A stretch of 64,000 bases of DNA from a bacterium (GCA_016786595.1 JAEUWB010000006.1:50648-114647), one strand, 5' to 3'. Numbered from the stretch's first letter, positions 6,710 through 58,802 are shown. Numbers and translations are program-made. Notes: generated by a model not told the origin, from the sequence alone.

Positions 6710-6744
6710 GATCCGCTTTCAAATCACACTTGAGCAAAATAGTT

Positions 6745-6925
6745 GCTTAGGCTTGAACTTGAACTTCCTCTAATCCTGCTTCAATTCTCACAACAAGATC
6801 ATCGGCTAAGTATCATGATTGCATGGTTGTCACGTAGTCAGTCTAAGAAAAAGAATAAGTTCAAGCCTAAGCTGAAGAATTTCCGTCACTTGCAATCACA
6901 GCCTAGTTCTAAGCCTAAAGCTAAC
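6745..6925. repeat. REP-like palindromic intergenic element (copy 1 of >=7): left arm 'gcttaggcttgaacttgaactt', right arm 'aagttcaagcctaagc' plus 'ctaagcctaaagc'
   Basis: Inverted arms read directly. Lies between the convergent ppa and S1-protease genes. The overlapping 62-aa ORF 6743..6931 is a translation artefact of the repeat. Confidence 0.7.
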
Positions 6926-9675: not shown

Positions 9676-9708
9676 AGTTGCTTCAACGATACTACTATTT
9701 CTTTTTCA

Positions 9709-9786
9709 GCTTAGGCTTAACCCTACGCTTACGCCAAATGGGAAGGGTAAGGGAAAGTTCAAGCCTAAGCCTAAGTTTTCCTCGCA
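9709..9786. repeat. REP-like palindromic element (copy 2): 'gcttaggcttaa ... gggaagggtaagggaaag ... aagttcaagcctaagcctaag'
   Basis: Inverted arms with a purine-rich loop; lies between ndk and rlmN, which are co-oriented. Confidence 0.75.
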
Positions 9787-9887
9787 AGCCGATCTGTTGA
9801 ATTAAAGAAAACGACTAACAATATAATTGCGAGCGAATTACAACAGAGAAAAAATCCCCGCAACGACGTATTTAGCCAAAATCACAC

Positions 9888-10298
9888 TTAAAACTCTGGG
9901 AAGAAAAATTGGATTTCCTTGCGTGCGTTTTCCAAACTATCTGAACCGTGCACAGTATTGGCATCGATACTGGTCGCAAAATCCGCCCGGATTGTTCCTG
10001 GAGCTGCCTCTTTCGGGTTAGTTGCACCCATAATTTCACGGTTAAGCGCGACAGCATTTTCGCCTTCAAGCACGCTGACCACCACAGGACCAGAAGTCAT
10101 AAATTCAACTAAGTCTTTAAAGAATGGACGCTCGCGGTGAATATCATAAAATGATCCCGCCAGGTCCTTAGAAAGTGTCAGCATTTTTGTAGCAGCAATT
10201 TTCAGACCGCGATCTTCAAAACGAGTAAAAATCTTACCGATCACGTTCTTTTTAACGCCATCTGGTTTAATAATTGAGAGTGTTCTTTCAGTAGCCAT
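9888..10298 (-). CDS. ndk: Nucleoside diphosphate kinase
   Basis: [15 protein letters not shown] ... NAVHGSDS active-site His context; 136 aa. Confidence 0.95.
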
Positions 10299-10317: not shown

Positions 10318-10560
10318 TTTTGAGGCGCATTATTATACCAGTTTGCAAAAAGATTCTGAATAAAATCACGATTTTTGCAAACCGGTATAATAGTTGTGTC
10401 GGAGACGCAACTAGCCAATTAATAGCGTTCCCCTCCATTAAAAACATGCAGATGCAAAGTTCATACATATAGAAGGACTGCGTTTTGCGTTTTGTAGCTC
10501 AGATATGATGTTTGCTACAAAATACGAATATTTACGGGGAAAGCTATAATCTTTTTTGTC
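10318..10560. repeat. Copy A of a ~240-bp two-hairpin intergenic repeat (family 2): 'attataccagtttgcaaaaag...tttttgcaaaccggtataa' and 'cgttcccct...ggggaaagctataat'
   Basis: About 75% identical to 52905..53140; contains two internal inverted repeats. Confidence 0.7.
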
Positions 10561-20499: not shown

Positions 20500-21066
20500 T
20501 CAACGTTTAAAAATGGGCTGATCTGATAGTTCATTGATAGAACGTTTTACAGTCCCTGAATCGTTCGGAAAATGTTCAGCCAGAATTTTGCTGACTGAGT
20601 TAAGGCACTCAATAATCCCTTGAGTAAAATCACCAGACTGAAAAGTTGTCTTCGTTAGCTCGCAAATTTCGTGCCATTGTTGGTCATTAACTTTTGTAGC
20701 AATGCCACGGTCAGCAAGAATCTCGAGGGATCGATCGGCCAAATTAATGTATATGAGGACGCCAGCGTTTGTCTCGGTATCCCAAACTCGTAGCGAGCTA
20801 AACAGCATCTCGGCTTTTTCGCGAACCGTAATCCCACGTAAGAAATCTAACAGATCAAGTGCCGCTTCTACACAAATGCAAATCTCCCCGGTATGTTGTC
20901 TTTCAGAAAGAGAAATCGACTCGGCAATTCTTGCCCGGTTACTTTCAGGAAATATTTGATTTAATTCCCAGTAACCGAAGAAAAAGCATTTCAAGAAATG
21001 CACTTTAAAGAATTTCGAGAAAACTTCTGTGAAGAATTTAGAAAGTTCGGCTTGCATAGTTACCAC
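20500..21066 (-). CDS. TPM-domain (TLP18.3/Psb32/MOLO-1 phosphatase-like) protein, cytoplasmic paralogue
   Basis: Its sequence pattern parallels the upstream TPM gene. Confidence 0.55.
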   Translation of the reverse strand: MVTMQAELSKFFTEVFSKFFKVHFLKCFFFGYWELNQIFPESNRARIAESISLSERQHTGEICICVEAALDLLDFLRGITVREKAEMLFSSLRVWDTETNAGVLIYINLADRSLEILADRGIATKVNDQQWHEICELTKTTFQSGDFTQGIIECLNSVSKILAEHFPNDSGTVKRSINELSDQPIFKR

Positions 21067-21893
21067 CTGCCCGAGGCACCTCCTCCACCAAAACTCCCTC
21101 CTCCCCCACTAAAGCCGCCACCCCCTGAACTCCAACCTCCACCTGAACTTGTTGAATACCTGCCAGTCCCCCAAGTCCGGTTATTCTCCAGGGAGGAAAA
21201 AATGAAAACTATCAGGCCGGCAATACACGCTGTAAGAAAAGAGAGCGCAAACAATGAAAGCACGCATGTGACAAGCGCAGCAATTGTCGCGCCACGTTTG
21301 CGGCCCAGTGAATATTTGAGGATCGAAGCTAAAAACAAGCCAAGAACTACAAAGACCGGGAATAAGTCTACCAATGTTGAATCGTATTGGGGCAGAGGGA
21401 GTTTCTCGCCAGCAATGGCTTTCTGCATCGCCCAAACACCTTCCGTTATACCTTGTCCGAATTCGCCAGCTTGAAATCGGGGAGTGATAATTTCCGAGAT
21501 GATGCGTTTACAAATTGCATCCGGAAGTGCCCCTTCAAGGCCGTAACCAACTTCAATCCGCATACTACGGTCTTGCTTAGCAACAATCAGAATCACGCCA
21601 TCATTGATTTTTTCACGACCAATTTTCCAAGTTTCTGCAAGTCGGATCCCAAAACTTTCGATTGCCTCGCCTGCTGTAGTCGGAAGAATTAAGACAGCAA
21701 TCTGCGATCCTTTTTCTTTTTCAAACTGAGCAAGACCATTCTCGAGCACTGCTTTCTCAGGGCCAGTCAGCGTCGAGCTTAAGTCGACAACACGCCCAGT
21801 CAGTTCGGGAATTTCAATCAGTGCAAAGGCAGAGAGTGGTAGCGTGAAGCAAAGTGTGGCAAGAAACAATTTACAGATTAAACTACGAATCAT
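21060..21893 (-). CDS. TPM-domain protein (YgcG-like) with signal peptide, C-terminal TM and a Gly-rich tail
   Basis: GSQIAVLILP...DRSMRIEVGYGLEG TPM core; GGGGFSGGGGSFGGGG tail. Confidence 0.7.
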   Translation of the reverse strand: MIRSLICKLFLATLCFTLPLSAFALIEIPELTGRVVDLSSTLTGPEKAVLENGLAQFEKEKGSQIAVLILPTTAGEAIESFGIRLAETWKIGREKINDGVILIVAKQDRSMRIEVGYGLEGALPDAICKRIISEIITPRFQAGEFGQGITEGVWAMQKAIAGEKLPLPQYDSTLVDLFPVFVVLGLFLASILKYSLGRKRGATIAALVTCVLSLFALSFLTACIAGLIVFIFSSLENNRTWGTGRYSTSSGGGWSSGGGGFSGGGGSFGGGGASGRW

Positions 21894-21937
21894 TTCCTTT
21901 TCGCTTTATTTAGAACACGTCAGGGAAGTTTTGATTA

Positions 21938-22052
21938 TGTTCGAGGTTGAGACGAGTTCGAGGAACGGGAATTGCGAGCAGCAGAGTTTATTGTAATAAA
22001 TGAGCAGCGCAGCAATGTCCCGTTCTGAAGAAATCGGCCAAGATCGGACATA
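21938..22052. repeat. MITE-like structured repeat (family 3), copy 1, inserted between lemA and its TPM partner genes
   Basis: Shares 'tttattgtaataaatgagcagcgcagcaat' and 'aatcggccaagatcggac' with copies at 23372 and 28411. Confidence 0.7.
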
Positions 22053-22064
22053 AGCAGAGCTTCC

Positions 22065-22649
22065 TTAAAATGAAACCTTCGGCGGCACACTTACCGCTTT
22101 TTCATTTTCAACTGCAAAATTTTCTTTAGTCGAGTAACCAAAAATCTTTGCGGTTAAGTTTGATGGGAATTTGCGCACCAAAACGTTATAGGACTTGACG
22201 GCTTCGATATAACGCAAGCGCGCTACAGCAACGCGGTTTTCTGTACCTTCAAGTTGTGCCTGTAAATCTCTAAATACTCCGTCTGCTTTAAGCTGCGGAT
22301 AATTTTCAGAAACGGCAATCAAACGCGAAAGCGCCGAAGATAATTCACCTTGAGCTGCTTGGAATTTCTGCATGGCAGCAGCATCGCCAATTGAATCAGC
22401 ATTAACTTGAATGCCCCCTACTTTGGCACGTGCATTAGTGATTGATTCCAAAACCTCTTTTTCGTGATCGGCATAACCCTTCACGACATTAACGAGATTC
22501 GGAATCAAATCAGCGCGGCGCTGATATTGATTGAGAATTTCACTCCAGGCTGACTTTATTTCTTCGTCAAATAATTGGAAGCGGTTGTATCCACAGCCGG
22601 CTGTGGATACGATTAGGAATAACATTACTAATCTAATAATATTTTTCAT
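22065..22649 (-). CDS. lemA: LemA family protein
   Basis: N-terminal TM, then the conserved LemA region (...ENYPQLKADGVFRDLQAQLEGTENRVAVARLRY...). The ATG at 22649 with a GGAGG RBS is preferred over the longer ORF. Confidence 0.8.
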   Translation of the reverse strand: MKNIIRLVMLFLIVSTAGCGYNRFQLFDEEIKSAWSEILNQYQRRADLIPNLVNVVKGYADHEKEVLESITNARAKVGGIQVNADSIGDAAAMQKFQAAQGELSSALSRLIAVSENYPQLKADGVFRDLQAQLEGTENRVAVARLRYIEAVKSYNVLVRKFPSNLTAKIFGYSTKENFAVENEKAVSVPPKVSF

Positions 22650-22822
22650 AAAGAAAGCCTCCGAGAAAAGAATCACCTGAAAACAATTACGACAGATACA
22701 GATCGAGAAATCTGGCAAAATTATACATCAATAAGCAACAACTCCCGATAAGTGGCCGATAATTATGATGTAATTCAAAATTTTTCTAACCAGAAACCCA
22801 AAATAACTAAAGAGGATAATTT

Positions 22823-23092
22823 ATGCCAGTCATTTCAATGTTTTACGGCCTGATTGTTACGATGTATTTTTTAGATACCAAAAAGCACAATTTGCCCCAC
22901 ATACATGTACGCTATCAAAATTACGAGGCAGTGTATGGTATTGAAACATCAGAGTTGCTCGAAGGTTCCCTACCAATTAATAAAGAACGGATTTTATTAG
23001 CTTGGATTGAGCTGCACCGTGACGAACTATTGGCAAATTGGAGTTTAGCCATTGAGGCGCTACCACTGTTCAAAATCGACCCATTAAAGTAA
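22823..23092 (+). CDS. DUF4160-family small protein
   Basis: 89 aa; MPVISMFYG...LPHIHVRY pattern typical of DUF4160; strong RBS AAGAGGA. Confidence 0.6.
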   Translation: MPVISMFYGLIVTMYFLDTKKHNLPHIHVRYQNYEAVYGIETSELLEGSLPINKERILLAWIELHRDELLANWSLAIEALPLFKIDPLK

Positions 23093-23101
23093 AATACCTA
23101 C

Positions 23102-23350
23102 ATGAACCCAAGAGTTGTATCAGTCAAAGCAAATGATGATTATACCTTAGTATTGGTCTTTACTAACGGAGAAACTCGTATTTTTGACGCAGCTAATTTG
23201 TTAGATACTGGTGTATTTAAGGCACTAAAAGATATAACCCAATTCAGGCAAGCAGCTGTTGCTTATGGAACAGTAATCTGGCCCGGTGAGATTGATTTGT
23301 GCCCAGATACCCTTTACGAAGACAGTAAACTATTAGCGACTCTAGGCTGA
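23102..23350 (+). CDS. DUF2442-family small protein
   Basis: 82 aa, 9 nt downstream of the DUF4160 gene; this is the canonical pairing. Confidence 0.6.
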   Translation: MNPRVVSVKANDDYTLVLVFTNGETRIFDAANLLDTGVFKALKDITQFRQAAVAYGTVIWPGEIDLCPDTLYEDSKLLATLG

Positions 23351-23371
23351 GTGCCCAAATAAATACATATC

Positions 23372-23470
23372 CGTTGAGGTTCAACAAAAATCTCCCGCGA
23401 CGACTTGTCCGCCGTAGTCGGCGAAACTGCGTAGGCGGAAGAAATTTGGCCAAGAACGGACTTAAATACT
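23372..23470. repeat. MITE-like structured repeat (family 3), copy 2 (right-half variant), abutting the 3' end of sucD
   Basis: 'cgacttgtccgccgtagtcggcgaaactgcgtaggcggaagaaatttggccaagaacggac' matches 28508..28562. Confidence 0.7.
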
Positions 23471-24342
23471 TAGCGATTGAGCAACTCCCGCATAGCCACC
23501 CCAATCGTCGCCGGGGATCGCGTTGTTGCCACACCGGCTTTTTCCAGAGCTTTGAACTTTCCTTCGGCAGTTCCCGAACCACCGCTGATGATTGCACCAG
23601 CATGGCCCATGCGTCGCCCCTCAGGAGCTGTCGCTCCACCGATAAAACCAACAACAGGCTTTTTCACGTGAGACTTAATATATTCCGCGGCCTCTTCTTC
23701 AGCAGTTCCACCAATCTCACCAATCATCACGATCGCATCAGTGTCGCGATCTTCATTGAAAAGCTTCAAGCAATCGATAAAGTTTGTGCCATTTAATGGA
23801 TCGCCACCAATACCAATACAAGTCGATTGACCAATCCCGAGCGAAGTCAATTGATCAACAGCTTCATAGGTGAGTGTTCCTGACCTGGAAACAACACCGA
23901 CTCGACCAGGCAAGTGAATGTGGCCGGGCATGATACCAATCTTACAGGCGCCAGGTGTAATAATTCCTGGACAGTTTGGACCGATCAGGCGCGTGTTAGA
24001 ATTTTTAAGATAGGTTTTGACTTGGAGCATGTCACGCACGGGAATACCTTCAGTGATACAGACAACAAGCGGTACTCCAGCATCGCAAGCTTCAAGAATT
24101 GCATCTGCGGCGAAAGGAGGAGGGACATAGATCACGCTGGCGTTGGCCCCTGTGGCCTTAACAGCATCCTTAACTGAATCAAATACAGGGATGCCTTCTG
24201 CCGTTTCGCCACCTTTGCCGGGACTTACCCCCGCAACCATTTGCGTGCCGTACTCTTTACAGGCCTTGGTATGAAACATGCCGGTTTTGCCGGTCATGCC
24301 TTGTGTTAGTACTTTTGTATTTTTATCAACTAAAACAGCCAT
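23470..24342 (-). CDS. sucD: Succinyl-CoA synthetase alpha subunit
   Basis: Near-colinear with the E. coli SucD sequence ([27 protein letters not shown]). Confidence 0.95.
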
Positions 24343-24348
24343 TTTCTT

Positions 24349-25515
24349 TTATCCTTTCGCAACCTCAGCAACAATCTTCTTTGCCGCATCCGCCATATCG
24401 TCAGCTGGAATGATTTTTAATCCTGAATCAGCAAGCATTTTTTTGCCAATATCAACGTTTGTACCCTTGAGGCGCACTACCAGTGGAACTTTAATCGAGA
24501 GTTCCTTGGCCGCTTCAATAATACCCCCGGCAATTACATCGCAGCGCATAATGCCGCCAAAAATATTGACTAAAATGCCTTTGACACTTGAGTCGCTAAG
24601 AATCAGCTTAAAAGCTTCGGTCACCATTTCCTTAGTTGCACCACCACCGACATCGAGGAAGTTAGCTGGTGAACCGCCAGCCTGCTTGATGATGTCCATG
24701 GTTGCCATCGCTAAGCCTGCGCCATTTACCATACAACCGATGTTGCCATCTAAAGCGATATAGTTAATGCCTAGTTCGCCGGCGCGGATTTCACGCTCAT
24801 CGATTTCATCATAATCGAGGCGATCAAAGCCATCCTTTTGGCGATACAAAGCGTTATCGTCGAGTGCCATTTTAGCATCAAGACAAATGAAATTTCCTTC
24901 CGTAGTTTCAATCAAGGGATTAATTTCTAGCATCGAACAATCAAGCTCGAGAAATGCACGATAGAGGTTTTTTACAACCGGCGTTAATTTCTTTTGCAAA
25001 TCCTTATCAAGCTTTAAGAACTGACCAATCGAGCGGATATGGAAATCCTGTAGGCCCGTTTCGGGAAGCACGTTCACTGTCAAAACTTTTTCTGGATTTT
25101 TGTGGGCGATTTCCTCAATCTCCATTCCGCCTTCGGCGCTGATGATAAATGAAACACAAGTACTTTCACGGTTCATAATCAAACTGAGATAAAACTCACG
25201 TTTGATATCCGAAGCTTTTTCGACCCAAACCTTGCGCACTAAGCGACCTTGTGGACCAGTTTGTGGAGAGACTAGAGTCATGCCGATAATTTTTTCACCT
25301 AAACTGAAAGCCTCGTTAGGAGTTTTGGCAAGTTTAACACCGCCACCCTTTCCACGACCACCAGCGTGAATTTGGGCTTTGACCACAGTCAGTCCGCCAC
25401 CTAAATTAACCGCCGCCTTTTTAACTTCTCGCGGCGTATAACAAAGAAATCCTGGATTAACTGGTAATCCAAATTTTCCTAAAAAATCCTTGGCTTGATA
25501 CTCATGTAAATTCAT
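24349..25515 (-). CDS. sucC: Succinyl-CoA synthetase beta subunit
   Basis: [11 protein letters not shown]... ATP-grasp N-terminus; adjacent to sucD. Confidence 0.95.
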
Positions 25516-25538
25516 TGATTAGTACCTTAATTAATCAC

Positions 25539-26471
25539 TTACTTATTTAAACTTGCTACAAGATCACGCACATGCGAGGCGCTCACAGCTAGTTCTTGCT
25601 TTTCTTTTTCAGTCATTTCGATTTCAACGACTTTCTCTACGCCCTTCGCGCCGATAATTGTGGGAACGCCCATGTAGAGATCCTTAAACCCGTATTCGCC
25701 ACGGAGATAAGCTGCGCAAGGGATCACTTTCTTTTGGTCGAAAAGATAGCTCTCGGCCATTTCGATCGCTGAAATTGCTGGCGAGTAGAAGGCTGAGCCA
25801 GTCTTGAGTAGCGCTACAACTTCGCCACCCGATCCACGCACGCGTTTCTCGATAGCATCGAGACGATCTCCAGGAATCAGCTGCGCAACTGGAACGCCAT
25901 TAACAGTAGTGTAGGATCGGATCGGCACCATATCATCGCCATGTCCGCCAAGCACGAAAGCTGAAACCGATGTCGGAGAAATTTTTAATTCTTCGGCAAT
26001 ATGCGCACGATAACGCGCTGAATCAAGAACGCCAGCCATACCCACAACGCGCTCATGTGGGAAGCCAGTTTCCTTTTGGCAAAGAGTTACCATCACGTCT
26101 AGCGGGTTAGAGACAACAATTACAAAAGCGTTAGCGGCGTATTGTTTAACGCCTTGCGCTACGGTTTTCATGATGCCCGCATTTGTCGCAATTAAATCAT
26201 CGCGGCTCATTCCAGGCTTACGTGGAATTCCCGCTGTAATGATCACGACGTCTGCGCCTTCGATATCTTTATAATCTGTGGTGCCTTTGACTGCTACAGA
26301 AGTGCCAAGCACTGGTGCTGCATGCGTGAGATCGAGCGCTTTCCCGGCGGCAACTCCATCGGCAACGTCAAACATCACAACGTCCCCAAGTCCACGCTCG
26401 AGGGCAAATAAAGCAAGTGTTCCACCAATATTTCCAGCACCGATCAGGGCAATTTTACGACGTGTTTTCAT
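25539..26471 (-). CDS. mdh: Malate dehydrogenase (LDH-like family)
   Basis: KIALIGAGNIGGTLA Rossmann motif; ATG at 26471 preferred over the longer ORF. Confidence 0.85.
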   Translation of the reverse strand: MKTRRKIALIGAGNIGGTLALFALERGLGDVVMFDVADGVAAGKALDLTHAAPVLGTSVAVKGTTDYKDIEGADVVIITAGIPRKPGMSRDDLIATNAGIMKTVAQGVKQYAANAFVIVVSNPLDVMVTLCQKETGFPHERVVGMAGVLDSARYRAHIAEELKISPTSVSAFVLGGHGDDMVPIRSYTTVNGVPVAQLIPGDRLDAIEKRVRGSGGEVVALLKTGSAFYSPAISAIEMAESYLFDQKKVIPCAAYLRGEYGFKDLYMGVPTIIGAKGVEKVVEIEMTEKEKQELAVSASHVRDLVASLNK

Positions 26472-26785
26472 AATTATTTTGCAGTCTCCAATTAACGTAC
26501 AACGCCGGTTTGTATACAGAATTAGATCTGGCCGCAACTGTAGAGATAAATAGTCCGTAATTGCTTAATTTAAAAATCTTGAGTAATAATGAGCCCCTTT
26601 CGGGTAGTAGGGGATTATTAATAGGTTTTGAAACTGTTTTCAAAAGTTAATTTATTAACTTTTAGAAAACACTTCATCGCACCGTAGTCCCAATTTTTAA
26701 TTGGGCGAAGGCGGATAAGCCTTGCGAATCTGTTGGTTCAAGTTGCTCGCCATGATGCGGGCAAGTTCAACCAACAGGTGAAGTT

Positions 26786-27025
26786 ATGGGGAAATTTAAT
26801 CCAGAAGAAAGCCGTCTCTATCGGCAGTTCCGCACGGGCGGACTCGTTCTCGTCATTTGTGCAGTGCTAATTGGCATGCTTGGCATGAGTCCGATCGCCC
26901 AGCGACTTGATGCCTCAGTCTTTGGAATGCTGGCACTGCTATGCCTTTTTGGCGGGGTGATGCTGATCTTGATCGGCCTCGGGCTTTTCCTCCTGACAAT
27001 ACTCAAGGGGAGCAAAAGACTGTGA
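26786..27025 (+). CDS. Small hydrophobic protein (79 aa, 2 TM)
   Basis: ORF only. Confidence 0.3.
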   Translation: MGKFNPEESRLYRQFRTGGLVLVICAVLIGMLGMSPIAQRLDASVFGMLALLCLFGGVMLILIGLGLFLLTILKGSKRL

Positions 27026-27243
27026 AGTGCATCAGTTTAGCGCTACTCGTTGCTCTAACATTGAGCGCAATCGTTGCAACAAAGCTCAATCTTAACACGG
27101 TCGCAGAGTCTCTCTTGCTACTCTCTGCCTTGGGCTGGATTATCGTTTTGGCGATTTTTCATGCTCAGGCCAAAACCAAATTTTGGGAGGAAAACGCTGC
27201 GCGGCTGTTCCCTAACAGCTCCAAAGGCATTCCCAAAGACTAA
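27022..27243 (+). CDS. Small hydrophobic protein (GTG start overlapping the preceding stop; 73 aa, 2 TM)
   Basis: GTGA overlap with the previous ORF; hydrophobic. Confidence 0.3.
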   Translation: MKCISLALLVALTLSAIVATKLNLNTVAESLLLLSALGWIIVLAIFHAQAKTKFWEENAARLFPNSSKGIPKD

Positions 27244-27248
27244 ACACT

Positions 27249-27503
27249 ATGAACGATCAAGGAACGCAAGAAAACTTAAAGGCAGAGTCCGGTCACATTC
27301 CTGGCTGGCTTTTACTTTTGCTCGTCGTGGTGATGTTGTTGTGCTACCTTGATGGATCGATCTTGAACCTGGTCGATCCAAGCAATGCTCCACATCAATC
27401 AACAGGGGAAAAATTGATCGAGTCATTCGAGGCTGGAGCTAATCGATTTTCCCGAGACCCAAGTCTTGATGGCATCAGCCCAGAAGAAGCAGGTGAAAAG
27501 TAA
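27249..27503 (+). CDS. Small membrane protein (84 aa)
   Basis: ORF with one TM helix. Confidence 0.3.
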   Translation: MNDQGTQENLKAESGHIPGWLLLLLVVVMLLCYLDGSILNLVDPSNAPHQSTGEKLIESFEAGANRFSRDPSLDGISPEEAGEK

Positions 27504-27660
27504 CTGCGACTACGACCATGCTTGGGCCTAAGGTTGATCAAAATCCCCTACGGCCCTCTTTGAAAATTTTCTATAAACATCTTGAATGACCTGTTGCATT
27601 AATTTATAATCGTGAACTCGGGCAGTAGAGAGAATTAACCGGTTTTACGAAGGATGATAT

Positions 27661-27724
27661 CCTCGAGGTAATGATTTAAGTCGGCGGCGCTTTACTGTTG
27701 CCAGCTTAAATCATTGCCTCGAGG
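27661..27724 (+). promoter_or_regulatory. 20-bp-stem hairpin ('cctcgaggtaatgatttaag' / 'cttaaatcattgcctcgagg') whose 3' arm contains the GAGGT Shine-Dalgarno of the ORF starting at 27732
   Basis: One mismatch in 20 bp; loop of 24 nt; the ATG lies 7 nt after the stem. Confidence 0.5.
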
Positions 27725-27731
27725 TAAACTC

Positions 27732-27929
27732 ATGAAACGTAGCATCAAACTCGAAATCGCAGCAGCTGTAGTTCTATTTTTGGGCTTTGCTACAACAGTT
27801 GTTGCCCATCACTATCACGCCCCGTACGCGATCCAGCAGGCTTGCGGCAAGTTCGCCTTGCTCTGTATGATTTCTGCGGGAATCTTGTTCGGCATCTTTG
27901 CAGAAAAATTTCGCATAGCGGAAGACTAA
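27732..27929 (+). CDS. Small membrane protein (65 aa, 2 TM; contains an HHYH motif)
   Basis: ATG with GAGGT SD; hydrophobic. Confidence 0.35.
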   Translation: MKRSIKLEIAAAVVLFLGFATTVVAHHYHAPYAIQQACGKFALLCMISAGILFGIFAEKFRIAED

Positions 27930-28002
27930 ACGCAAAGGTCTAAGTTGGCAAAGGTTGCAAGCAATTCTCTCTACTGCCAACTTCCTTCCCCAGAGAACAA
28001 TG

Positions 28003-28311
28003 TTACTTACTATTAGGCGCAGCTTTTGTTGTCCGAGCAATTGAATCCACCTCGTACCCTGCGTCTGTGACATATTTTTTAATTTGCTCATCGGAAAGCG
28101 TCTGACCGTCTTTGATTTCAAGGTGCATATTCTTCTTTTCTAAACTGACTTCAACTTTAGAAACTTGGGGCATATCAGAGAATGTCTTGGTCAGTCCTTG
28201 CGAGCAAAATGAGCAGACCATGCCATTGACGCCGACCTCAATTGTCTCGGCCAAAGCTTGAGTAGCGCCTAAAAACAATAAACATGTGGTAAGAATTATT
28301 TTGTGTTTCAT
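28003..28311 (-). CDS. Periplasmic heavy-metal-associated (HMA) domain protein (CopZ-like metallochaperone with signal peptide)
   Basis: GMVCSFCSQG = MxCxxC metal-binding motif; N-terminal signal peptide. Confidence 0.75.
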   Translation of the reverse strand: MKHKIILTTCLLFLGATQALAETIEVGVNGMVCSFCSQGLTKTFSDMPQVSKVEVSLEKKNMHLEIKDGQTLSDEQIKKYVTDAGYEVDSIARTTKAAPNSK

Positions 28312-28410
28312 GGTTTATACCTCGTTATCTAAGTTAACAGATTGCCGCGGTCGCATGAAATAAAATTTCATGCTCCCTCGCAATGACTGACGGCCCCGTT
28401 CGCCATCTCT

Positions 28411-28576
28411 GAATACGGTTGAGATTGAGTCGATGTCGAGGAACGGACCTTAATACAGAGCAAGAAGCGCGCTTTATTGTAATAAATGAGCAGCGCAGCA
28501 ATCTCCCTGACGACTTGTGCGCCGTAGTCGGCAAAGCCGCATAGGCGGAAGAGATCGGCCAATCTCGGCCGTATTC
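28411..28576. repeat. MITE-like structured repeat (family 3), full-length copy 3 with 17-bp terminal inverted repeats 'gaatacggttgagattg' / 'caatctcggccgtattc'
   Basis: Contains both halves found separately in copies 1 and 2. Confidence 0.75.
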
Positions 28577-28577
28577 C

Positions 28578-29216
28578 CTAGAAATGCACCATCAAAGTCC
28601 CCATAACCTTACCTCGTGTCGTAACTCCCAATTCCCAAAAAACGTTAGATTTAAAAAATCTCAACAGTGGGCCGCCTTCGATTTCGTCCTCACTATCTGG
28701 TTTATAATTTATTTCGGCAAGTATCCAGGAATTTAACTCGTCAAATTCTGCGAGATATGGAGCAGCTCCCAGACGCAGCTTAAGACGATGTACATCGAGA
28801 CTTCCTTCACTTTGTAGTTCGTTGATTTCAAAAGCCGAATAAAGTCTGCGACTCTCGGCATCAAGTTGTAGACCAGCAAAGCTTGCGAGCTTAATGTCAC
28901 CATCAAAATCAGCAAGTCCGGCACCGGCCATCAGATAGAAGTTAGCTTGATAGTCAGGGGCATTTTCCCGGTAAATTAGAAAGTTAAAATGTGGATAGAT
29001 AAAATTTACGTCTCGGTCGGCGATTTCCACCCGCGATACTCCTAGGCCAACTGACTGCCGAGCGGAAAATGAATAATGCAGCATCAAGTCGTTACGACCA
29101 GGTGAGATATAATCCATTACGGCAATGCCCCCCTTGAAGGTAACCGGGTGCGCCTTAACGTATTGAGGCAGCAAAAAAATAGTCAATACAAACAAATTTT
29201 TTAAAGCACTTCTCAT
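28578..29216 (-). CDS. Putative outer-membrane beta-barrel protein (signal peptide, C-terminal Phe)
   Basis: 212 aa, alternating hydrophobic pattern, ends ...LMVHF. Confidence 0.45.
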   Translation of the reverse strand: MRSALKNLFVLTIFLLPQYVKAHPVTFKGGIAVMDYISPGRNDLMLHYSFSARQSVGLGVSRVEIADRDVNFIYPHFNFLIYRENAPDYQANFYLMAGAGLADFDGDIKLASFAGLQLDAESRRLYSAFEINELQSEGSLDVHRLKLRLGAAPYLAEFDELNSWILAEINYKPDSEDEIEGGPLLRFFKSNVFWELGVTTRGKVMGTLMVHF

Positions 29217-40180: not shown

Positions 40181-40203
40181 GGCGTATCTGAAAACGCGAT
40201 TTG

Positions 40204-40284
40204 GCTTAGGCTTGAACTTATACTTCCCCTTAAGCTTTTTTAAAAAAGGTTAAGGGAAAGGGAAAGGGAAAGTTCAAGCCTAAG
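40204..40284. repeat. REP-like palindromic element (copy 3): 'gcttaggcttgaactta ... ggttaagggaaagggaaagggaaag ... ttcaagcctaag'
   Basis: Read directly. Confidence 0.75.
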
Positions 40285-40298
40285 TTTGAAAAAAACAA

Positions 40299-41880: not shown

Positions 41881-41986
41881 TCTTGAACTTTGGCTTGAGC
41901 TTGAGCTTACCTCTATTCCCATAAAATAACCAATAGATTTTGTTACTCAGATTAAGGTAAAGGATAAGCTTATATTCAAGTTCAAG
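41881..41986. repeat. REP-like palindromic element (copy 4, degenerate left arm) in the divergent mcm / acyl-CoA carboxyltransferase intergenic region
   Basis: 'tcttgaactttggcttgagcttgagctta ... aagttcaagcctaagcc'. Confidence 0.6.
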
Positions 41987-42037
41987 CCTAAGCCTATCAG
42001 CACAACACGCTTGAATGCTATATCGCTGAGATAAGAA

Positions 42038-45726: not shown

Positions 45727-45736
45727 GCGTAGTTTA

Positions 45737-45801
45737 AGCTTAGGCTTGAACTTCCCCTTCCGTCTTCCTAGGATAAGTAAAAGTCTAAGTTCAAGCCTAA
45801 G
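45737..45801. repeat. REP-like palindromic element (copy 5): 'gcttaggcttgaactt-cccctt...-aagttcaagcctaag'
   Basis: Read directly; lies between convergent genes. Confidence 0.8.
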
Positions 45802-45820
45802 TAAATAGCTGATAATCTGC

Positions 45821-50543: not shown

Positions 50544-50555
50544 GTAACCGTATCC

Positions 50556-50667
50556 TTTGGCTTGAACTTATCTTTAACCTTCTGAATGAATGAAGGATAA
50601 AGAACTACAAGAGTTTAGGACAAGGATCAGGATCAGGTAAAGGGCAAGAGCAAGTTCAAGTGCAAGG
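50556..50667. repeat. REP-like palindromic element (copy 6, long-loop variant)
   Basis: 'ggcttgaactta ... aagttcaagtgcaagg' arms around a ~80-nt insert. Confidence 0.6.
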
Positions 50668-50674
50668 CACGAAC

Positions 50675-50836
50675 TTACTTATTCTCGTCTTTCTTTTGGT
50701 CTTTTTCCATTTCACGCAGTAATTCAATCGACTGCTTGATTAGACCAAGCTCAAAAGCCATCGAAGATGGGCCAAAACGATTAGTAAATGTTGGACGACG
50801 CTTTCTTTTGCGGCGGTTGGATTTCAGAGTTTCCAC
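50675..50836 (-). CDS. Possible small basic protein (53 aa, GTG start; VETLKSNRRKRKRRPTFTNRFGPSSMAFELGLIKQSIELLREMEKDQKKDENK)
   Basis: Below the 60-aa cutoff of the ORF track; found by manual translation; weak RBS. Confidence 0.2.
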   Translation of the reverse strand: METLKSNRRKRKRRPTFTNRFGPSSMAFELGLIKQSIELLREMEKDQKKDENK

Positions 50837-52904: not shown

Positions 52905-53140
52905 CTGTTCACCGATATATTATACCAGTTTGCAAAAAGATTTTGGATCAAACACAGGGTTTTTGCAAACTGGTATATAAGTTGTGTCGTAGACGCAACC
53001 AGCCAACAAATCGCGTTTCCCCTTTATAAACAAGCCCGTGCAAAGCTTATGCACTCAAAGGCAATGTTTTTTATAACTCAGCTGCGTTTGCTATATATTC
53101 AAAATATTTAGGGGAAACGCTATAATATTTTTTCGTAATC
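52905..53140. repeat. Copy B of the ~240-bp two-hairpin repeat (family 2)
   Basis: Aligns with 10318..10560; flanked by the inverted 'gtcattgcga' / 'tcgcaatgac' sequences at 52876 and 53180. Confidence 0.7.
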
Positions 53141-56173: not shown

Positions 56174-56469
56174 AACTGGAAATGAAAAAGAAATTAAAAA
56201 AACCTAAATGTGCTACCAACTTCCTTCGCGAATTTTAGAGCCCAAATAATCCGCTCTTCCGCGAAGGAAAGGTATAAACTTCTACCCGTAATAGCCTATA
56301 AAAATCAGGCCATAATTTAGCATAATTTTAGTGCTTTTTCAAAGCGTGCCTTTTTAAGGGTTTTATGTTTAGTTTCAGGTGAAAAAATTAATACGGGTAA
56401 AGAATTAAATTACAGTCTCGTAGAGACGTTCGATTTGACTCTGTAAGACTGTAACTTACGATAATTCAG

Positions 56470-57029
56470 GTTTTATATTCGTTGAAGGCTTTGCGTTTAA
56501 GGAAACTTTCGTCACCTGATATGTATTTAGTTTACCATTAGCTTTGAATTTTTAATCTGAGAGTTCAAAGCTGACGGTGACTGAACTAACGAGAAGCGTA
56601 ACGCTCGGTGATGTAAAAAAAATCACCGAGTTTGCCCATACGCATCGTAGCCAGGAACGTGCCTCACTCTTTCAGCCTTCGAGAGCATAGGGGCAATTTT
56701 GTCAGCCATAGATGAGGAATATACCAATAGACTTGGTCTCATCTGTTGTCCCAGGCTTCAGCTTACCTCTCCACTGAAGTCTGGATTCTTTTTATTAACT
56801 GCGAGAGGAACTCATCCTCTCTCCTCCACTACTACCACCTCCCCTTGCTGTTGCACCCCCACTTCTAGCGAGTGGGAGGTTGGTAGACTAAACTGACGAA
56901 TTTCTGACCGCAATTCAACACCTAAAGGCCACGCAAAGATGGTCACGGTTAGTCAAGCAAACAAATAGGTGGGGGGCATCTCCCGACGGCTAGCTGCTCC
57001 TAACTAGCATGTCTCCCACCATTTTTTCC
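56470..57029 (+). ncRNA. Candidate ~560-nt structured non-coding RNA, class unknown
   Basis: The whole 1.37-kb region has no ORF of 60 aa or more in any frame. It holds a run of stable hairpins at 56745..56900, a candidate promoter (TTGACT 56435-56440, N19, GATAAT 56460-56465) and a strong plus-strand terminator at 56968..57029. Strand and ends are inferred. Confidence 0.3.
56968..57029 (+). terminator. Rho-independent terminator: GC-rich nested hairpin 'ggtggggggcatctcccgacggctagc...gctagcatgtctcccacc' followed by 'attttttcc'
   Basis: Read directly; the T-run is only on the plus strand. Confidence 0.6.
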
Positions 57030-57444
57030 GTCTTCTATCCTTGCAGTGAGCCCTCCGTAGCTCTCTTGCCATCTGCCTTTCCTCGTCGAGTTCACTTGAC
57101 TTTTGAGACGTGGCAGAACACGGCCCGTGGGTAGAGAAGCCATCTTACAGCTTCACTGGAGTGCTTTCCTCCGCTACCCCGGGTTCGTTTAAGGTTTATA
57201 AATTTTTCCTCCCTAGCCCTTTTTAACCGTCAAAGGGCAGTGTAAAGCCCGGAAGTAGCAGTGCTGGCTAAGTCACCTAGTCCAGATCACGAGGATCCCG
57301 CGGCAAACAGATCCTCAGCTACTCTCCGGGCCCGTTGAAAAAATTATGGTTATAAAATCGTACGTTACAGTCGCTTCCCTATTGACCATATCGCACTTGT
57401 AATTTTTTTTGCACCTCGTGTCGTTGGATTGCGAAAAGATTGAA

Positions 57445-57578
57445 GCTTAGGCTTGAACTTTTACTTAACCTTATCCTGCCCCTTCCTTTTTCAATTAGGG
57501 GTGGACTCTATTCGGGACAGGACAAGATCAAATTCAAATAGGGAGAAGGATAAGGTTAAGTTCATGCCTAAGCCTAAG
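57445..57578. repeat. REP-like palindromic element (copy 7, long nested-hairpin variant) 8 nt downstream of the TLP stop codon
   Basis: 'gcttaggcttgaactt' / 'aagttcatgcctaagcctaag' with an inner 'ttaaccttatcct' / 'aggataaggttaa' pair. Confidence 0.75.
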
Positions 57579-57585
57579 TCCCGAT

Positions 57586-58332
57586 CTAAATCACTTCTTC
57601 AAGCAGCTTGAGATAATCTGCATCAGACTCAGGCAATTTTGTCTCAACGAGGAATTTGCCATTCTTTTGAATTACTCCTGCGCCGCGCAAAATCCAACCT
57701 GGAGTTTTATCGGTGATCAATCCGCGCTCGCGGGCAAGTGACTCACGTTCTTCAAGTAAGAGGCGGCCAATTTCAGCGTTAATCTCTTGAGGAGATTTCC
57801 CTTCACGTTTTAAGCGATCACTGAGTAAGGCACCGGTCAAATTACGCATCGCAACTTTGCGCTGCCAAATAAAATAGTCGGCAACATGCTCCCGCGAGGG
57901 TAATTCTAGAAGCTTGGTATGAAAAAGCACGCAGAGCCCCAGGGCTTGTGCAAAATTCAAAGCCGCAGCACTAGCTAAGCCCGAGACTAGGCGGCCACGT
58001 TTACGCGGATTCAAGCTCTCGTTTAAATCAAAAAGTAGCGAGATTTCGTCGCCGTGAATGAAAGAGTAATTGATTTTATAGCCAACATCGTAAAGCGCTT
58101 TGGCGGTTTCAACTAAGGCATCAAATACTCGCTTGTCGTAAGGGTAGTCGATATCGGCTTTATCCCAGGCAGCGCCGTAACGCCTTCCATCCATGCGAAT
58201 GATTAGATGCGTATCAGGGAAAACTAAAGTATCGCCGTAGTTTTCAAAGCGTTCAAACAGGCGTTGGTATTCGGCTAACGTCTTTGGCCCATCTTGATCG
58301 GCTTTTGCATCGCGTTTACGTTTTTCTGTCAT
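57586..58332 (-). CDS. Thg1-like protein (TLP): tRNA-His guanylyltransferase family 3'-5' nucleotidyltransferase
   Basis: Thg1 hallmark motifs in the correct spacing: IIRMDGRRYG (hh-R-h-D-G-R) and FIHGDEISLLF (S/G-D-E-x-S-h-h-F carboxylate pair); 248 aa. Confidence 0.65.
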   Translation of the reverse strand: MTEKRKRDAKADQDGPKTLAEYQRLFERFENYGDTLVFPDTHLIIRMDGRRYGAAWDKADIDYPYDKRVFDALVETAKALYDVGYKINYSFIHGDEISLLFDLNESLNPRKRGRLVSGLASAAALNFAQALGLCVLFHTKLLELPSREHVADYFIWQRKVAMRNLTGALLSDRLKREGKSPQEINAEIGRLLLEERESLARERGLITDKTPGWILRGAGVIQKNGKFLVETKLPESDADYLKLLEEVI

Positions 58333-58523
58333 GGAATTGATCTCGATTATTTATTAACCTTTAAAGCACAGCTAACAACTAGCTCCGAGTTGCAGATCTT
58401 TCGGCTGGGCCGTAGTAAAACAAAGCTTTACTACGTGCTCGCTCAAGATGACAAGCAATTGATATTGGTGCAGTTTTGAGACGAAAACAAGGCGCAAAAA
58501 TTTTTTAGGGCCGACTTTATTAC

Positions 58524-58802
58524 AATAAACGTAAGATTTTTAGCCCAAAGACGAGGCGCGGGAATTTTTGAGGCTTTCCAATGTATGTAAATACATGAAA
58601 GACGAGAAAATTTCCCGTAACGACGTATTTGGCAAAAAGCGTAGATAAAAAGCTTAACAAACGCTAATAAACGTAAGATTTTTCGCCCAAAGACGAGGCG
58701 CGGGAATTTTTGAGGCTTTCCAATGTATGTAAATACATGAAAGACGAGAAAATTTCCCGCAACGAAGTATTTGGCAAAAAGCTTACGTTTATTAGCGTTT
58801 GG
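58524..58802. repeat. Tandem direct duplication of a 117-bp structured unit (period 142 bp, 3 mismatches) immediately 3' of rpsI; copy 2 is flanked by a 20-bp inverted repeat
   Basis: Units 58524..58640 and 58666..58782, with a 25-bp spacer. Each unit contains a 'cgggaattttt...aaaatttcccg' long-range stem. ORF 58443..58868 is an artefact. Confidence 0.8.

Follow-up and report, generated by a model that had tools for sequence, protein, structure and literature searches.

Modular hairpin-forming repeats in the lemA, sucD and efflux-operon spacers of a 64-kb bacterial sequence

What are the short structured repeats that lie between the genes of a 64,000-nucleotide stretch of bacterial DNA (GCA_016786595.1 JAEUWB010000006.1:50648-114647, hereafter the window), and did one of them enter the lemA-TPM operon as a mobile element? 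A preliminary description of positions 21,938 to 28,576 proposed a family like the miniature transposable elements with inverted repeats known as MITEs, bounded by terminal inverted repeats (TIRs), in which two shorter copies were deletion derivatives of one element and one copy may have uncoupled lemA from the TPM-domain genes that follow it. We report here that the region carries three non-coding, hairpin-forming repeats of 95-166 bp (c1, c2 and c3), all in the same orientation and spanning 6.6 kb of the window, which share their arms and differ in two optional internal modules, M1 and M2. Their appearance is that of an ordinary family of small repeats, though one not seen before. With moderate confidence, we favour lineage-restricted, modular, quasi-palindromic repeats of the MITE, BOX or Correia kind, which would have been inserted 3' of stop codons and whose co-transcribed hairpins may modulate the stability or processing of messenger RNA (mRNA).

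Copies and modular anatomy

Three pairwise similarities emerged from repeat finding: around M1 (pair D9, 21974-22021 / 28460-28507, 85% over 48 nt), around M2 (pair D10, 23399-23445 / 28509-28555, 87% over 47 nt) and between left arms (pair D17, 21932-21968 / 28410-28446, 37 nt, 78%). The M1 30-mer occurs exactly twice, in c1 and c3, with 30/30 nucleotides identical; an M2 24-mer occurs twice, in c2 and c3, as does a right-arm 23-mer in c1 and c3 when up to three mismatches are allowed, and dinucleotide shuffles expect 0.00 occurrences of each. Between-copy nhmmer E-values range from 1e-9 to 1e-12. No fourth copy was found in the 64 kb by sensitive blastn or nhmmer --max, the other 57 kb being empty. 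The copies and their parts are the following.

21933..22055, plus strand: copy c1, left arm, M1 and right arm, without M2; one continuous long hairpin
21938-22050: homology core of c1, with flanking TA at 21936-37 and 22051-52
21987-22016, plus strand: M1 in c1, identical to M1 in c3
~23368..23464, plus strand: copy c2, short left arm, AAATCTCCC box, M2 and right arm, without M1
23399-23438, plus strand: M2 in c2
23439-23464, plus strand: right arm of c2
28411..28576, plus strand: copy c3, the longest (166 bp), left arm, spacer, M1, CAATCTCCC box, M2 and right arm
28411..28446, plus strand: left arm of c3, GAATACGGTTGAGATTGAGTCGATGTCGAGGAACGG, of which the first 17 nt pair with 28560-28576
28473..28502, plus strand: M1 in c3, TTTATTGTAATAAATGAGCAGCGCAGCAAT, folding as an apical hairpin and containing the near-palindrome TTTATTGTAATAAA
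28509..28548, plus strand: M2 in c3, GACGACTTGTGCGCCGTAGTCGGCAAAGCCGCATAGGCGG, a self-contained branch hairpin
28549..28576, plus strand: right arm of c3, AAGAGATCGGCCAATCTCGGCCGTATTC, ending 1 nt from the stop codon 28578-28580

A MAFFT alignment of the copies defines three parts common to all of them, namely a left arm (...TA-N-G[G/T]T[T/C]GAG[G/A]TTGA...), a central box, (A/C)AAT(C/G)TCCC, and a right arm, GAAGARAT(T)YGGCCAA-NNN-CGGMC-N-TA. The optional modules are M1, found in c1 and c3, and M2, found in c2 and c3; each folds as its own hairpin within c3, and the left arm of c2 is truncated. The sequences and coordinates given in the preliminary description are present, and its account of a structured repeat family, whose ends are inverted repeats and whose two internal modules may be present or absent, is borne out. 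Its assignment of modules to copies was right, and homology moves the bounds of the shorter copies to 21933-22055 for c1 and ~23368-23464 for c2. As to the TIRs, those of c3 (CGGTTGAGATTG ... CAATCTCGGCCG) do pair at 17/17 positions, but the whole length of every copy is an imperfect palindrome.

The relationship among the copies is that of a mosaic. At the place where M2 would be expected, c1 carries CCCGTTCTG, which pairs exactly with GAGGAACGGG of its own left arm, and its junction CCCGTTC pairs with GAACGGG of the same arm. Copy c3 retains the left-arm half GAGGAACGGG and has no partner for it; of the M1 region, c2 has no more than the final ~10 nt (AAATCTCCC). Since c1 is thus a self-complete hairpin, the family is mosaic in the manner of BOX elements; derivation of the shorter copies by deletion from a single element is too simple an account of a self-complete c1 whose arms are 22-27% diverged from those of c3 and whose M1 is nevertheless identical.

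Two sites elsewhere in the window recall the modules. Upstream of mdh, the stretch 26682-26775 contains CCGTAGTC-N19-AGGCGGA, compared with CCGTAGTC-N13-AGGCGGA for the anchors of M2, and is closed by a 15-bp inverted repeat (26733-26747 / 26761-26775); the degenerate M2-like site itself (26682-26715) was considered as a decayed fourth copy and rejected, its local alignment being not significant against shuffles. The reverse complement of the M1 core palindrome, TTTATTACAATAAA, stands at 58516-58529. It directly precedes a tandem 142-nt duplication (58524-58643 / 58666-58785, 97%) within the intergenic stretch 58516-58801, which also holds a 26-nt inverted repeat (58658-58683 / 58776-58801) and to which a 44-mer at 9850-9893 is related.

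Paired arms, folding and gene context

In c3, the 17 paired positions of the TIR comprise 15 Watson-Crick and 2 G.T pairs, and the stem runs on to ~23 bp with one bulge. The terminal stem of c1 pairs at 14/17 positions in the same register, and that of c2 is reduced to 6 bp (TCCGTT/AACGGA) in a shifted register. Between c1 and c3 no more than 28/36 and 21/29 arm positions agree (72-78% identity), and the internal modules are better conserved. Three of the differences within the 17-bp terminal stem are compensatory double changes (A-T to T-A, C-G to T-A and G-C to T-A), a number with P ~0.006-0.03 under a mutation null, and RNAalifold reports the same three pairs; in addition, a double G.T (GGTTGA/TCGGCC) is retained in all copies. 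Together, the compensatory changes and the retained G.T pairs indicate that what has been maintained in the arms is their complementarity and not their sequence, which could reflect either selection on the hairpin or DNA-level correction of a quasi-palindrome. Compensatory change in quasi-palindromes can also arise from DNA-level template switching without any selection on RNA.

Fold prediction for c1 as RNA gave -52.6 kcal/mol for the plus strand (z -7.7) and -38.2 kcal/mol for the minus strand (z -5.9), with z-scores of -7.6 and -4.5, respectively, under DNA parameters, and it ranks fifth for fold stability among all 130-nt windows of the 64 kb. Copy c3 folds as the ~23-bp stem closing a junction with the M1 and M2 hairpins, at -69 kcal/mol (z -4.5) on the plus strand and -57 kcal/mol (z -2.0) on the minus strand; the fold of c2 is weaker (z -2.4 plus, -3.7 minus). 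On the minus strand, which is the mRNA-sense strand, c1 and c3 fold less well because their mismatches become C.A there. As c1 and c3 favour the plus strand and c2 the minus, neither RNA strand is singled out, and a strand-specific RNA reading was rejected since the G.U asymmetry follows the same split.

The identity of M1 amid diverged arms calls for its own comment. At a background of 77% identity per position, 30 identical positions have a probability of 0.77^30, or ~4e-4 per position (own calculation), which points to either constraint on M1 or a recent conversion tract.

All copies lie in spacers between genes, whose identities were confirmed by Pfam.

20500..21893, minus strand: two TPM-domain genes (21060-21893 and 20500-21066), downstream of lemA
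22065..22649, minus strand: lemA, called with 194 aa in public assemblies and identical to MBL7661468.1; stop 22065-22067
DUF2442 stop at 23348-50, plus strand: DUF4160 and DUF2442 genes
sucD stop at 23470-72, minus strand: mdh-sucC-sucD
28003-28311, minus strand: open reading frame (ORF) with an HMA domain
28578-29216, minus strand: 212-aa ORF after an OEP-HlyD-AcrB (RND-type) efflux operon

Copy c1 lies between the lemA stop, 9 nt from its right end, and the TPM start (21893); c2 occupies the 119-nt gap between the convergent DUF2442 and sucD genes, so that c1 and c2 bracket lemA and the DUF4160/DUF2442 pair, as had been described; and c3 stands in a 266-nt gap between the stop of the 212-aa ORF and the HMA-domain ORF. 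In 3/3 copies the TA that flanks the right arm follows a minus-strand stop codon closely (12 nt after lemA, 5 nt after sucD and 4 nt after the 212-aa ORF), a placement that is informative for c3 only, since its gap leaves room for other positions. There is no sign of coding: the three differences in the sole short frame shared by the copies are all non-synonymous, c3 lacks a start codon in it, and no ORF is called in the copy-bearing gaps of public assemblies. On neither strand did any copy show a promoter-like or terminator-like consensus. Between c1 and the TPM start, Hammerhead_1 was matched weakly at 21892-21929 (minus strand); this match was discarded as probably due to chance (17.9 bits and E 0.66, the gathering threshold being 34; core CUGACGU, without the invariant CUGANGA).

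The position of c1 was set against 80 LemA loci from species-representative genomes, in which gaps were estimated. A TPM gene lies immediately downstream of lemA in 73 of these, with a median gap of 14 nt and a maximum of ~123 nt. The corresponding gap in the window is 171 nt, larger than in all 73 operons, and falls to ~46 nt once c1 is removed, which supports c1 as an addition to an operon that is normally tight, as first proposed. The further suggestion that c1 may have uncoupled the genes found no support: neither a promoter-like nor a terminator-like site lies in c1, and the TPM gene has retained an AAGGAA ribosome-binding site of its own, so that c1 is probably transcribed through from lemA.

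Mobility and competing explanations

On the reading that we favour, the design is one of two partly complementary arms around optional, independently folding hairpins, giving arm-M1-arm, arm-M2-arm and arm-M1-M2-arm. A non-autonomous element would most likely have inserted immediately 3' of stop codons, in short spacers between genes and perhaps at TA; its internal modules would then have been reshuffled or lost while its two arms evolved in concert. The elements would now sit in transcribed spacers, after lemA, sucD and the efflux-operon ORF, and as the copies contain no promoter or intrinsic-terminator consensus they are probably co-transcribed as long hairpins. With predicted mRNA-sense stabilities of ~-37 to -59 kcal/mol, such hairpins might stabilise 3' ends or be sites of processing by RNase, so that expression of the downstream cistrons would be modulated rather than abolished.

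Size and ends are those of a MITE, the copies being non-coding, shorter than 500 bp and bounded by TIRs within the usual range of about 4-30 bp. TA is present on both sides of the homology core in 3/3 copies (28414-15/28572-73, 21936-37/22051-52 and 23368-69/23463-64), and c2 alone has TAAATAC on both sides. For a target-site duplication, which the preliminary description had suggested looking for at the copy ends, the TA on each side is the only consistent candidate; no longer one is shared by the copies. Two self-palindromic bases being indistinguishable from the TIR, a TA duplication is unprovable here; a TA target as in Correia or IS630-type elements is possible judging from these ends.

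Several observations weigh against an origin by transposition. The known copies number three and all fall within 6.6 kb, a clustering with P ~0.03 for three random points in 64 kb (own calculation). The modules are more conserved than the arms, the opposite of what recognition of TIRs by a transposase would predict. No duplication is longer than TA, and the TA could equally belong to the inverted repeat. Pfam scans revealed no transposase, RAYT or Y1 domain among the 40 larger ORFs of the window. Neither an empty site nor a polymorphism was seen, as short contigs of the organism from five metagenome assemblies carry the copies at the same sites with at least 99.9% identity; the contigs reached through exact-protein look-ups were of low coverage, 1-7 kb long and confined to the window. 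An M1 22-mer probe had 0 matches in 185,579 GTDB species genomes, M1 and M2 probes had 0 matches in IMG/VR, and blastn against plasmids and phages gave no match. In JGI metagenomes, a degenerate right-arm pattern retrieved 63 loci and no true copy; blastn and nhmmer show nothing common to these loci beyond the 23-nt pattern, and they are therefore ascribed to chance. Finally, none of 5.8 billion predicted proteins matched a concatenated six-frame translation of c3, by which spurious ORFs in other copies would have been caught. Mobility of c1-c3 is accordingly not demonstrated.

The comparison of strains has little power, because the organism is without close relatives. In the protein collection, the closest LemA is 71-76% identical and the closest PolA at most 54%, and the named best PolA matches come from metagenome-assembled genomes of Bdellovibrionota or 'Deltaproteobacteria'; the host is probably an uncultured Bdellovibrionota-like lineage. 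Logan contigs end inside the copies, and such repeats break short-read assemblies. In two independent ENA assemblies, contigs both end at exactly 27912, where the window has no repeat; this position may be a strain-variable junction or a repeat with other copies outside the window.

Foremost among the alternatives, the copies could be structured RNA modules maintained by the host, that is, cis-acting hairpins of 3' untranslated or intercistronic regions (stabilisers, RNase III/E sites or attenuators) selected for their structure and for the sequence of M1, and not mobile now or ever. The compensatory changes in the terminal stem are in keeping with this, as are the conservation of M1 above that of the arms, the constant position of the right end just after stop codons and the lack of both a target-site duplication and a transposase. 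Against it, no strand is consistently favoured, the compensatory changes can also be explained by template switching, and the three host operons are functionally unrelated. Nor is there a match to an Rfam family: with Rfam 15 nothing reached gathering thresholds in the whole window, and nothing appeared within the copies at E up to 5. We regard this explanation as unlikely.

The repeats might otherwise have been generated locally, by duplication, gene conversion or recombination in a 7-kb neighbourhood, without any family transposing through the genome. All copies are indeed in one orientation within 6.6 kb and none is in the remaining 57 kb; the perfect 30-nt M1 of c1 and c3 fits a recent conversion tract; and no other collection that was searched yielded a copy, although the remainder of this genome lay outside what they could sample. 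Segmental duplication fails to explain the precise placement in three separate spacers, since what lies between the copies is a set of housekeeping genes, unique and unrelated to one another, and the divergence of the arms (22-27%) implies that the copies are old. Local origin appears rather improbable to us.

We give still less credence to the idea that M1 is a module recognised by its sequence by some protein or RNA and carried by the hairpin repeat to the 3' ends of unrelated operons, which would make the family the vehicle of a small post-transcriptional or DNA-binding regulon and not selfish DNA. What bears on it is the 30/30 identity of M1 beside arms that differ by 22-27%, and the recurrence of TTTATTGTAATAAA, reversed, at 58516-58529.

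That the elements give rise to plus-strand small RNAs or antisense RNAs is very improbable. In c1 and c3 it is the plus strand that gives the better fold, G.U pairs being conserved there (GGUUGA/UCGGCC), and a terminator-like hairpin lies on that strand at 22081-22098, 25 nt downstream of c1; however, nothing comparable follows c2 or c3, terminator-like sites are rarer than chance in the region (3 found against 10.3 expected), none of the copies is preceded by a promoter-like site on the plus strand, and for c2 the minus strand is the better one, again with no Rfam match. Chance similarity or a low-complexity artefact is already refuted by the exact 30-mer and 24-mer repeats, absent from shuffles, and by the nhmmer E-values.

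A second palindromic intergenic family, unrelated in sequence to c1-c3 and more abundant, occurs at seven sites of the window (6736-6880, 9702-9783, 40195-40290, 41888-41995, 45733-45807, 50546-50681 and 57436-57587). It has conserved 15-16-bp inverted ends, GCTTAGGCTTGAACTT ... AAGTTCAAGCCTAAGC, variable centres of 26-100 nt and periodic flanks of AAGG/GGGAAAG type, and each site folds as a long hairpin (-28 to -63 kcal/mol). Being likewise bounded by TIRs, this second family indicates that the genome accumulates such elements.

Other structured sequences of the window are recorded here in their own right. An 87-nt repeat (10347-10433 / 52935-53021, 77% identical) in unrelated intergenic regions conserves an 8-bp hairpin, GTTGTGTC-GGA-GACGCAAC, and could represent either a paralogous small RNA or a regulatory leader common to the two sites. 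The region's best sigma70-like site, TTGAAT-17-TATAAT (27582-27610), stands ahead of an inverted repeat that is near-perfect over 20 bp (27661-27680 / 27705-27724). Within this stretch (27582-27734), a 130-nt segment of 42% GC folds at -56.6 kcal/mol and stops just short of the ATG (27732) at which a small membrane-like ORF starts, so that a structured leader is suggested. Lastly, 1.37 kb at 56220-57585 without an ORF of at least 90 aa, where Rfam is empty, holds two of the window's most stable 130-nt folds (56521-56650 and 57211-57340) and could be a non-coding RNA or a decayed gene.

If confirmed genome-wide, c1-c3 would represent a repeat family from a deep uncultured Bdellovibrionota-like lineage in which such elements are essentially undescribed, a literature search for them together with Bdellovibrio having given a single incidental paper. 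The family opens no new kind of biology. It offers a clean natural case of a modular hairpin inside the normally tight lemA-TPM operon and right after an RND efflux operon, and it is thereby useful for studying how intercistronic hairpins tune operon expression.

Comparison with known repeat systems

Some known structures were discarded on inspection. Retron and tRNA-like readings were ruled out, and so was an integron attC site (5' RYYYAAC ... GTTRRRY 3'), whose core sites bound an imperfect palindrome where a mobile cassette has its 3' end, since the GTTGAGA-like motif is at the left (5') end, its partner is TCGGCC and the flanks are housekeeping operons. REP units, which RAYT transposases mobilise, are GC-rich, 20-40 nt long and usually found as clustered inverted units with a RAYT gene. 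An assignment to REP or BIME elements was rejected, as c1-c3 measure 95-166 bp at ~50% GC and the Pfam scans gave no Y1/RAYT domain; they share with these elements their nature of extragenic palindromes downstream of genes and their mosaic combinations.

The ERIC/IRU elements of enterobacteria are imperfect palindromes of ~127 bp, with longer variants that contain internal insertions. They are found in transcribed regions at the 3' ends of genes, with an orientation-dependent effect on mRNA stability (PMC10969869). No sequence relationship links them to c1-c3, and ERIC is conserved across genera whereas the present family is found in one species-level lineage only.

The Correia repeat-enclosed elements of Neisseria (CREE) are ~150-160 bp long when complete, have internally shorter forms of ~105 bp and show TA at their insertion borders. 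To our knowledge, the Correia TIR is unrelated in sequence to that of c1-c3. The long TIR hairpins of Correia transcripts are cleaved by RNase III, and one characterised copy lies in the mtrCDE efflux operon (PMC10969869); similarly, c3 follows an RND efflux operon. In contrast, c1-c3 appear to have neither the 26-bp TIR nor the internal promoters and integration host factor (IHF) site that characterise Correia elements: no sigma70-like promoter was found in them, no IHF-like motif was found by eye in the copies, and the WATCAR-N4-TTR motif was not seen in M1 by eye, no scan having been run. There are three copies here against more than 100, and the arms are more diverged than the internal modules. 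With prokaryotic MITEs in general, c1-c3 agree in size, TIRs and stable stem-loop transcripts as published (PMC10969869).

An architectural parallel is provided by the BOX elements of pneumococci and other streptococci (boxA-boxBn-boxC, with variants in S. suis that have several types of internal module), in which pairing flanking modules enclose internal modules that fold independently and may be present or absent without loss of the overall hairpin (PMC3049150), and whose copies tend to cluster (PMC10969869). The present family differs from BOX in belonging to another phylum, in having two distinct single-copy modules instead of tandem boxB arrays, in its three known copies and in the failure to identify a parent like ISSpn2. 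Similarity in sequence was not found, BOX hidden Markov models not having been compared, and none is to be expected from one phylum to another; the likeness is one of architecture. On that level the correspondence is plain, as arms are found in all copies, M1 in c1 and c3 and M2 in c2 and c3: both systems consist of paired terminal modules around optional self-folding ones, placed between genes and often co-transcribed with them, the latter probably being the case here as well.

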